From Candidatus Poribacteria bacterium (GTDB taxonomy: Bacteria > Poribacteria > WGA-4E > PCPOR2b), in contig OZ242326.1 of the NCBI GenBank assembly GCA_965208325.1, forward strand, positions 3,328,001 to 3,392,000: a stretch of DNA of 64,000 nucleotides, given 5' to 3'. This document shows, piece after piece, positions 32,271 to 33,271 of the stretch. Below the pieces are notes generated by a model that was given only the letters and a program-made list of their open reading frames with translations, had not been told where the DNA came from and ran no database searches. The translations under genes were made by a program, and so were the position numbers. Every line of letters starts with the position of its first letter. Position 1 is the first letter of the stretch.

Positions 32271-32663
32271 TCACAAGATCCATGATTCGAGCCGATCTGC
32301 GATTGCTTCAAGATCTGTCAAAGTACCATCGGCAATACGAAGACCAAGCTCGATTATAGACTCATTGATGTCGAGACGCAGGGAACAACCATTCATCGCA
32401 AGAAACCAGAGTGCGCAATCCAAACCTATGCGCTTATTCCCGTCGAGGAAAATATGTCCTGTAATAATGTGATGGGCATATAGTGCAGCTTTTTGGGTCA
32501 GAGTCGGGAACAATTCCGTGTCATTCAATGATTCGCCGACCATTTGAACCAAATAGCGCAGTTGATTTTCTTTCAACAACTGATAGTTGCGCACATGCCT
32601 GTGGGCAACCATCAGAATATCCTCAACCGTCAAATATCTCAGAAATTGGATAGCACTTTCCAT
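32271..32663 (-). CDS. Fic/Doc family death-on-curing toxin
   Basis: HIFLDGNKRIG Doc motif, YLTVEDI, LFPTL.QKAA; 130 aa. Confidence 0.88.
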   Translation of the reverse strand: MESAIQFLRYLTVEDILMVAHRHVRNYQLLKENQLRYLVQMVGESLNDTELFPTLTQKAALYAHHIITGHIFLDGNKRIGLDCALWFLAMNGCSLRLDINESIIELGLRIADGTLTDLEAIADRLESWIL

Positions 32664-33271
32664 GCAGGTTTGTAGTTATTGACAATTTCTTCGCCTAGCC
32701 ATGAGTTGTAGATTGCACGTCCTATTTGTTCAAGAAAAGATTCATCGTACCACCCGCCGATGTTAGCATGTTCTCGCGCTAACTTGATGAAACCTTCGCG
32801 TGACTTTGGTTTTGGCCGTGCCATAGTCTTCGATTTGGCGCCGGATAGCTTTTCTACTAAAGCATGATAAATTTCTTCAACGGTCATTGAACGCCCATCA
32901 AAATATCCGGCGGTCAAAAGGAATTTTGGCACTTCTGTGGCGTCAAGCCGGATTGGCAAAATCTTTTCTCGGTTCTCCTCAACGAATGCCCTTGCCTGAG
33001 CGCTGTGAAGTTCATGGTTCGTCCACAACCCCTGTGCATAGCGTTCAGAAAGGAATATGACGCAGTAACGCGCCCGATCTGTGTAAGCAGAAGATAAGTG
33101 AACATAAAGATTTTTGCCCCAAAGTTTCGCCCGTTCAATTGTGTCATTAAAGATGGAATACCCTCCACCCGTGAGAAGCTTGGCTAAATGTTCGGCGTAG
33201 TGTCGATCTTCACCCGCAAACGACAAGGCAACGTCATATTGTCTCTCGTTCATGTTTCGCTCCATTATCAT
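32639..33271 (-). CDS. TIR-domain protein with a C-terminal antitoxin-like extension
   Basis: YDVALSFAGEDR, LWGKNLY, CVIFLS..Y...WTNHE (catalytic Glu), ILPIRLD. A 61-aa extension starts at internal ATG 32824 and overlaps doc by 25 nt. Confidence 0.85.
   Translation of the reverse strand: MIMERNMNERQYDVALSFAGEDRHYAEHLAKLLTGGGYSIFNDTIERAKLWGKNLYVHLSSAYTDRARYCVIFLSERYAQGLWTNHELHSAQARAFVEENREKILPIRLDATEVPKFLLTAGYFDGRSMTVEEIYHALVEKLSGAKSKTMARPKPKSREGFIKLAREHANIGGWYDESFLEQIGRAIYNSWLGEEIVNNYKPAWKVLSNF

Follow-up and report, generated by a model that had tools for sequence, protein, structure and literature searches.

A window of 64,000 nucleotides (nt) from a Candidatus Poribacteria bacterium, a sponge symbiont (assembly GCA_965208325.1, contig OZ242326.1, positions 3,328,001 to 3,392,000 of the forward strand) contains a gene for a TIR domain with a C-terminal extension, here called the tail, which overlaps the gene for a Doc toxin. 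We consider it fairly likely that the two genes constitute a Doc toxin-antitoxin module located in a defense island, that an intact TIR protein with the phylum's portable Doc-partner helix serves as the antitoxin, and that the tail probably has a second role related to the TIR domain. Sequence comparisons indicate that the last helix of the tail is very probably the Doc-partner (antitoxin) element, and the TIR+tail protein would probably be an antitoxin of a new kind, one that is at the same time an enzyme. A putative Doc-neutralizing tail is found here on an immune-type enzyme, the TIR, and on TPR arrays across the whole phylum. The interpretation put forward in the initial annotation of this region, which proposed a TIR-antitoxin/Doc module, is thereby partly supported. 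The features of the two genes, with positions counted from the first letter of the window, are as follows.

32639–33271, minus strand: TIR+tail gene, 210 amino acids (aa) counted from the first ATG of the open reading frame (ORF).
32888–33232, minus strand: TIR domain, residues 14–128 (Pfam TIR_2; PDB profile matches to the AbTIR NADase, 7uwg and 8g83, and to 7uxr).
33011–33013, minus strand: Glu87 codon within WTNHEL; this glutamate is putatively catalytic, invariant in alignments and aligned with AbTIR WTNYEL.
32804–32845, minus strand: variable linker, residues 143–156, of low alignment conservation, with the non-conserved Met150.
32696–32803, minus strand: mid region of the tail, residues 157–192, SREGFIKLAREHANIGGWYDESFLEQIGRAIYNSWL, near-invariant, with two predicted helices and specific to the TIR form.
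32642–32695, minus strand: terminal Doc-partner motif, residues 193–210, GEEIVNNYKPAWKVLSNF, the predicted last helix.
32639–32663, minus strand: overlap of 25 nt between TIR+tail and Doc, with the Doc ATG within the Ala203-Trp204 codons (GC-ATG-G).
32271–32663, minus strand: Doc toxin gene, 130 aa (Pfam Fic/Doc; TIGR01550; PDB matches).
32430–32456, minus strand: Fic/Doc active-site motif HIFLDGNKR, residues 70–78, read from the ORF.

The anatomy of the TIR+tail gene is as the initial annotation had described it, with a TIR domain that contains WTNHE (residues 83–87), a tail that follows without an intervening stop, and a 25-nt overlap with the gene for a Doc that contains HIFLDGNKR. The Pfam TIR_2 match covers residues 14–128 of the 210-aa ORF (E 1.7e-14, 54.8 bits against a cut-off of 28), and the 60-aa tail begins after the linker that starts at around residue 143 and terminates in EEIVNNYKPAWKVLSNF. 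TIR_2 and TIR are the only Pfam families on the protein, and the antitoxin DNA-binding domains Phd/YefM, RelB/RHH and MazE/AbrB were not found on it in Pfam, where it also had no PhdYeFM match. The in-frame ATG at 32824 (32822–32824) encodes Met150, and had been taken as the start of a 61-aa segment in its own right. This residue is replaced by Thr, Asn or Tyr in the aligned homologs, and the codon reads ACG in two of four metagenome runs (32823 A>G in X6 and X7); it is therefore unlikely that a 61-aa antitoxin is translated from a start of its own. The true start of the TIR+tail gene is probably Met7 at 33253, because the homologs begin with M-x-E-K-Q-Y-D-V, and this start is also suggested by the indels in run X9 (33257 and beyond), which lie upstream of Met7.

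The identity of the downstream gene is clear from Pfam Fic/Doc (PF02661; E 4.8e-9, 37.4 bits against a cut-off of 24) and from NCBIfam TIGR01550 DOC_P1 (46.4 bits against a cut-off of 38.65), and its profile matched the solved Doc structures 9VZC, which is the nearest, 3K33, 3DD7 and 3KH2. It contains the motif HxFx(D/N)(A/G)NKR, which is the wording used for the Doc active site in PMC13034048, and none of H70, F72, D74, G75, N76, K77 and R78 varies among 27 sequences. A second Doc of 139 aa, 65% identical to the first, is encoded elsewhere in the same genome (G000:C1:2065009-2066900; locus L017, 1465–3008, minus strand). Directly before it, and again overlapping by 25 nt, is the gene for a TPR protein of 382 aa, the end of which reads ...EGILENYDRAWKTLAKL / ILENYDRAWKTLAKL.

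The terminal motif is strictly linked to Doc in the Poribacteria. A Doc match was obtained in 39 of the 61 genomes searched, and 29 loci from the best 30 of 47 places, together with the window and the paralog in its own genome, made up the 31 Doc loci that were compared. At every one of them (31/31), the upstream ORF on the same strand ends in the motif, for which the consensus is DEILRKYDRAWKTLGNI and the pattern over the last ~17 residues is E-E-I-x-x-N-Y-x-x-A-W-K-x-L-x-N-x. The Ala, the Trp and the Leu are present in all 31 sequences, the Tyr in 30 and the Lys in 29. In the six-frame translation of the 4.71-Mb genome to which the window belongs, the strict motif occurs only twice, in both cases three residues before a stop codon and adjoining the only two ORFs with a Doc motif.

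What precedes the motif is most often a TPR array. TPRs were identified in the N-terminal parts of 20 of the 21 non-TIR Doc partners scanned (97–495 aa), the remaining one being a 69-aa protein, and the pair of TPR+helix and Doc is the common form, at 28 of the 31 loci. A TIR was not found in any of the TPR-type Doc partners. The TIR and TPR forms share the last ~17 residues only, and the mid region of the tail (residues 157–192) is unique to the TIR form; elsewhere, among 1.84 billion representatives, it was seen only in three ORFs of 53–62 aa. These metagenomic ORFs (P0242, P0243 and P0245) contain the mid region alone (KSREYFIRLARERANIGGW.DESILEIIGRAI), lacking both the TIR and the terminal helix, and could be free-standing mini-domains or gene fragments. 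The 69-aa Doc partner (L024, 1316–1522, plus strand) has an N-terminus similar to a VapB-like/PIN-associated antitoxin-like protein (E 8e-11), a small protein encoded 5' of a PIN toxin gene (L006, 3226–3944, plus strand), and appears to represent a third N-terminal module bearing the same Doc-partner helix.

Searches with the tail by itself identified little beyond its own family. The tail alone matched no Pfam family even at E<=10, had no meaningful NCBIfam match, and gave no candidate among proteins of near-equal length, while the five matches of its profile to the 1.84 billion representatives were its own family, the three small ORFs and one spurious repeat protein. A search of the ESM Atlas returned unnamed clusters only, with a recognition score under the useful level. 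In an AlphaFold2 (AF2) model of the whole TIR+tail protein, helices are predicted in the tail at residues 158–168, 177–190 and 196–208; this model is of low confidence (mean predicted local distance difference test score, pLDDT, 62.9; predicted template modeling score, pTM, 0.56), with a pLDDT below 50 at linker residues 146–150, and is too weak to place the tail on the TIR domain.

The proposal that the tail resembles the terminal helix of Doc antitoxins gained some support from more distant systems. Distant Docs were taken from IMG/VR contigs, giving 55 loci at which the upstream partners had 33 distinct C-termini, and 22 distinct antitoxin C-termini located 5' of the Docs on these viral contigs end in [FYMLW]xxLA[KER], for example ...ILSKHLKAFEELAK. 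Nine such antitoxins were scanned, of which two belong to Phd/YefM, one to RelB and two to MazE, with no family found on the other four. Since partners from the Phd/YefM, RelB and MazE families share one C-terminal motif, a single motif rides on several DNA-binding domains, and this motif is a putative general portable Doc-binding tail. At the IMG/VR loci L050–L095, the Phd/YefM, RelB or MazE partners of Doc all end in ...A-F/Y-x-E-L-A-K, and the overlap with Doc is typically the 4-nt ATGA, with 0 or -3 nt at three loci.

When the motif profiles of the Poribacteria and the classical antitoxins were aligned with hhalign, their 22 aligned columns were in register (E 4.5e-4, probability 33%), which is suggestive for such very short profiles, but no proof. 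A similar pattern is found in the antitoxin partner of the nearest solved Doc, that of Enterococcus faecalis (9VZC). According to PMC13034048, residues 52–79 of E. faecalis Phd (EFPhd) form a bent helix inserted into Doc, residues 65–79 mainly mediate toxin binding, and a synthetic C-peptide is printed as SKQKHNELYKELVT, in which H-x-x-L-Y-K-E-L matches, by eye, the Y-x-x-A-W-K-x-L of our motif. The window thus resembles the Phd-Doc modules of P1 (3K33, 3DD7 and 3KH2) and E. faecalis in having an HxFx(D/N)(A/G)NKR toxin with a coupled partner directly upstream, and in that both partners end in a short helix motif, aromatic/His-x-x-A/L-aromatic-K-x-L, as in the toxin-binding peptide of EFPhd. 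It differs in that the front of the partner is a TIR, or elsewhere in the phylum a TPR array, rather than a Phd/YefM, RelB or MazE DNA-binding domain, and in that the TIR+tail protein has neither a PhdYeFM match in Pfam nor a detectable sequence match to the solved Phd chains.

A further parallel is PanA_Phd-C:Doc of Corynebacterium doosanense, in which a Panacea-domain antitoxin neutralizes Doc through its C-terminal Phd-C element and a SUMO-Phd-C fusion alone suffices (Ernits et al., 2023, PMC10440598). Here as there, a short C-terminal element is linearly joined to an unrelated globular domain, and the same logic is seen in that the Panacea domain is itself dispensable for neutralization. 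The globular domain in the Poribacteria is a TIR (or TPR) rather than Panacea, and neutralization by the Poribacteria helix is a prediction.

The TIR+tail fusion is a recurrent architecture. A search over 5.8 billion clusters yielded 1115 relatives, and among the best 120 of these, at least 38 clusters with members of 202–209 aa cover at least 95% of the TIR+tail protein at 59–94% identity. For seven clusters, the longest contig has exactly the same length as that of one of the 12 closest Doc clusters, an indirect sign at most that Doc accompanies them. The architecture is also kept in six other Poribacteria genomes, and the scenario considered in the initial annotation, in which every homolog has a stop between the TIR domain and the tail, does not hold. 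The tail is present in every aligned member of 202–209 aa, that is, in 19 sequences (plus one N-terminally truncated form) in one alignment and in 25 in another, with S157, H168-G172, Y175-E177, Y200, A203, W204 and L207 invariant. It is more conserved than the TIR domain, with a mean column identity of 89% and 38 of 60 positions invariant across seven genomes. Contigs from four metagenome runs of four studies span Doc, tail and TIR, and show only substitutions between 32271 and 33256; indels relative to the window occur at 33257, 33278 and 33390 only, all of them in one run (X9, which holds the one at 33257). Because no indel falls within TIR+tail/Doc in four independent sponge metagenome runs, an assembly artifact is ruled out. 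Scans of metagenome contigs and of viral contigs with the TIR+tail profile found none, and a scan of metagenome contigs for the DNA motif gave a single contig with a TPR+Doc pair.

Nor does the TIR domain look like a decoy or a decaying copy, as had been considered on account of its unusual FND and EKILP segments. These are lineage-specific changes that the two closest clusters have as well, and Glu87, at the position that we take to be that of the catalytic glutamate (W-x-x-x-E) of the TIR NADases, is invariant in all 26 aligned sequences. Purifying selection acts on the TIR part, for which the ratio of nonsynonymous to synonymous substitution rates (dN/dS) is 0.10–0.33 where dS is measurable. 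In a profile search of PDB, the closest solved structures were AbTIR-like NADases, with WTNHEL aligned with WTNYEL of AbTIR, and the domain is apparently catalytically competent, which suggests an active NADase. Proteins of the AbTIR/TcpB type, which gave the best structural matches (7UWG, 8G83 and 4LQC), have N-terminal coiled-coil regions and are not known to be paired with a toxin. The TIR+tail protein shares WTN-x-EL with AbTIR, and differs in that its TIR comes first, with the Doc-partner tail behind it. Matches to the TIRs of Thoeris ThsB (E 1.1e-5) and of retrons (Retron_TIR, 40.7 bits against a cut-off of 600) were weak, an effector of the ThsA type (SIR2/SLOG or Macro-TM) was not found among the ORFs scanned between 19981 and 45983, and a reverse transcriptase was not found among the neighbors scanned; by these comparisons, TIR+tail/Doc is a member of neither the Thoeris nor the retron-TIR systems.

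The TIR-linked Docs have a single origin. In a maximum likelihood tree of 33 Docs with midpoint rooting, the four TIR-linked Docs form one clade, with support of 100/98, among the TPR-linked Docs, which fits a single replacement of the TPR array by the TIR plus spacer. Of the 29 non-TIR partners, 28 have an Arg in the motif; at this position the four TIR forms have P, E, K or K. Residue 40 of Doc is Gln in the three intact TIR-linked Docs examined, and is acidic (Glu or Asp) in 29 of the other 30. The two differences may represent a coupled change at a contact. Seven TIR+tail loci, a biased sample, were found with the TIR protein as the query, and a doc gene follows the fusion at some of them only. 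Doc is intact and overlapping in three (the window, L004 and L006) and broken in one (L002, identical to L023), in which it consists of two frame fragments with a TGA; the remaining three (L001, L003 and L005) are considered below. The tails of the latter are undecayed (EEILENYDEAWKTLGNL and similar), and dN/dS of 0.02–0.25 indicates purifying selection on the tail. The losses are asymmetric: TIR+tail occurs without Doc in three genomes and with a broken Doc in one, and all four Docs of the clade have TIR+tail upstream. A partner without its toxin, and no Doc of the clade without its partner, is the pattern expected of a toxin-antitoxin pair. In L001, a nucleoside 2-deoxyribosyltransferase gene (4764–5231; Pfam E 2.1e-27) is located between TIR+tail and the HKD+SNF2 gene, in the usual place of Doc.

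We propose that TIR+tail and Doc would act as a two-gene, translationally coupled toxin-antitoxin module. The helix that binds and neutralizes Doc would be formed by the final ~17 residues of the TIR protein. Doc would be a kinase of the Fic fold that phosphorylates EF-Tu and arrests translation. The helix may be a portable element of the Poribacteria that is normally placed on a TPR array, and that in one lineage would have been joined instead to an AbTIR-like TIR through a two-helix spacer specific to the TIR form. With an active NADase in the antitoxin, the module may have a role in defense, by the release of Doc and/or by the activation of the TIR upon infection.

Several observations weigh against this reading. 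The genomes of L001, L003 and L005 contain no Doc anywhere, as searched with a protein query and TIGR01550, although their completeness is not reported, and the dN/dS (omega) of the tail is as low as 0.017, at a dS of 0.90, between the Doc-less lineages L003 and L005. The persistence of an intact, constrained tail in Doc-free genomes indicates that the tail probably has a second, Doc-independent role that serves the TIR, such as self-association or autoinhibition. The coupled Arg/Glu change counts as one evolutionary event, and, since all of the evidence for the linkage comes from one phylum, the counts are inflated by synteny through descent. The motif profiles matched no Phd chain in PDB at E<=10, the matches obtained being chance ones such as DQAWKILGN of a J-domain, and homology to Phd-C is not established, because there was no such match and because the hhalign probability was only 33%. 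The AF2 model, with a mean pLDDT of 62.9, is of low confidence, and the TIR+tail protein would be an antitoxin without a DNA-binding domain, unlike the classical type II antitoxins, which are normally small DNA-binding proteins.

The observations on the Doc-less genomes could also mean that the protein is a self-contained TIR effector, with a three-helix tail for its own self-association or regulation, comparable to the coiled coils of AbTIR/TcpB, that the motif is only left over from a Doc partner of the TPR type, and that Doc is a passenger no longer needed and in the course of being lost. This would account for an intact Doc at only three of the seven TIR+tail loci, with one broken and three absent from genomes that are Doc-free, for the strong purifying selection on the tail in these lineages, for a mid region that is both highly conserved and TIR-specific, and for the finding that close homologs of the TIR (about 60–67% identical in this domain) bear numerous different modules at the C-terminus, TPR and Mrr_cat among them. 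We nevertheless regard it as doubtful, since the intact Docs of the window, L004 and L006 need a neutralizer and no other candidate gene is located beside them, the coupled 25-nt overlap is preserved, and the motif has not departed from the form found next to Doc in all other cases. It is moreover a proposal about what the tail mainly does, and leaves room for neutralization wherever Doc is present. The pair could also be an ordinary addiction module that merely stabilizes the defense island (HKD-SNF2, restriction-modification and the rest), with the TIR as a catalytically irrelevant scaffold that has replaced the TPR array and has no immune role. Its location inside an island of defense-type genes is in line with this, as is the interchangeable N-terminus of the partner (TPR, small domain or TIR), which suggests that the identity of this part matters little, as for SUMO-Phd-C in PMC10440598. 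A mere scaffold for an antitoxin helix would, however, not be expected to be retained where Doc is gone, nor to keep a catalytic-type Glu under purifying selection, and this explanation is decidedly unlikely.

A different concern is that the motif might be a dual-coding artifact, conserved only because the same bases encode the start codon and the N-terminus of Doc. The Doc ATG is indeed placed inside the Ala-Trp codons, in the arrangement GC-ATG-G at 32 of 33 loci (GCTTGG at the other one), and the last eight codons of the partner overlap codons 1–8 of Doc. However, residues 4–8 of Doc are variable (PRQHL, AGETV, SSKTV and others), whereas KTLGN in the frame of the partner is nearly constant, and the conserved [DE]EIxxxY is located 5' of the overlap, so that the motif reaches ~9 residues upstream of it. 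Furthermore, at three loci (L028, L031 and L044) there is a stop in the N-terminal extension of Doc, which starts at an ATGA overlap, and AW(K/E)TLG is still kept, as is the motif at the loci that lack Doc. The overlap therefore does not account for the motif, and an artifact of this kind is hardly credible.

Going beyond the toxin-antitoxin module that we favor, one could imagine a mutual restraint, in which the terminal helix keeps the Doc kinase off, the bound Doc, possibly as an antitoxin-bridged dimer by analogy with E. faecalis Phd-Doc, keeps the TIR NADase from self-assembly, and a cue from a phage breaks the complex and unleashes both translation arrest and the destruction of NAD+. We consider this extension unlikely. 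More broadly, the Poribacteria helix would be a plug that joins Doc to sensor (TPR) or effector (TIR) domains, and the pairs would constitute a family of sensor-antitoxin immune switches. Binding of the helix to Doc would in itself broaden the idea of "linear, portable neutralising elements" so as to include effector and sensor domains, and would provide a direct physical link between toxin-antitoxin pairs and immunity based on TIR and NAD+. The comparisons also yield a short candidate Doc-binding peptide motif and a natural series of TIR+tail proteins with and without Doc. No published description of a TIR- or TPR-fused Doc antitoxin was found in a search of literature listings and of passages from papers, and pairs of TPR+helix and Doc were likewise not found described in print.

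The TIR+tail/Doc pair sits in a putative defense island of about 17 kb, which contains the following neighbors.

28843–32172, minus strand: HKD(PLD)+SNF2 helicase, 1109 aa, the downstream neighbor (Pfam PLDc_2, SNF2 and Helicase_C; PADLOC C3a139, 8.9e-80).
33415–34209: DUF5131 gene, 264 aa (PADLOC PDC-M41B/M30B).
34386–34532: remnant of a small membrane protein, 48 aa, all that the window retains of a gene that is intact in related genomes.
34666–35889: Schlafen/AlbA_2 + HATPase_c_4 protein.
35990–36538: DarG-C-like protein, 182 aa (PADLOC DarG, C-terminal part only, E 1.2e-7).
36583–37956: HD protein, 457 aa, dGTPase-like.
38108–41704: Eco57I/MmeI-like methylase fusion, 1198 aa.
43979–45983: two further DNA methylases.

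At all seven loci, TIR+tail (and Doc, if there is one) is followed by the HKD+SNF2 gene, complete or reduced to an N-terminal remnant; in L003 and L005 the distance from TIR+tail is 16–19 nt. The HKD+SNF2 gene may be a functional partner, or may be syntenic only by descent in related genomes of one phylum. A scan of 32100–33480 for promoters and terminators revealed nothing beyond the shuffled controls, and none of the public runs listed as containing the locus was an RNA run; a weak sigma-70-like site (TGGACT-18-TATCAT, 33296–33325) and a 9-nt palindrome (ATAGTATAC/GTATACCAT, 33299–33310) are located 5' of the TIR gene, both at chance level in the shuffle control. The 182-aa DarG-C-like neighbor was also considered as a Panacea-domain protein, which was rejected for lack of a Pfam match even at E<=10. 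The pair that it forms with the HD protein is conserved, and is also present in L001. Just 5' of TIR+tail, where the window has DUF5131, related genomes encode an intact membrane protein of 133–143 aa with three transmembrane segments (MNGTEKVVEHL...).

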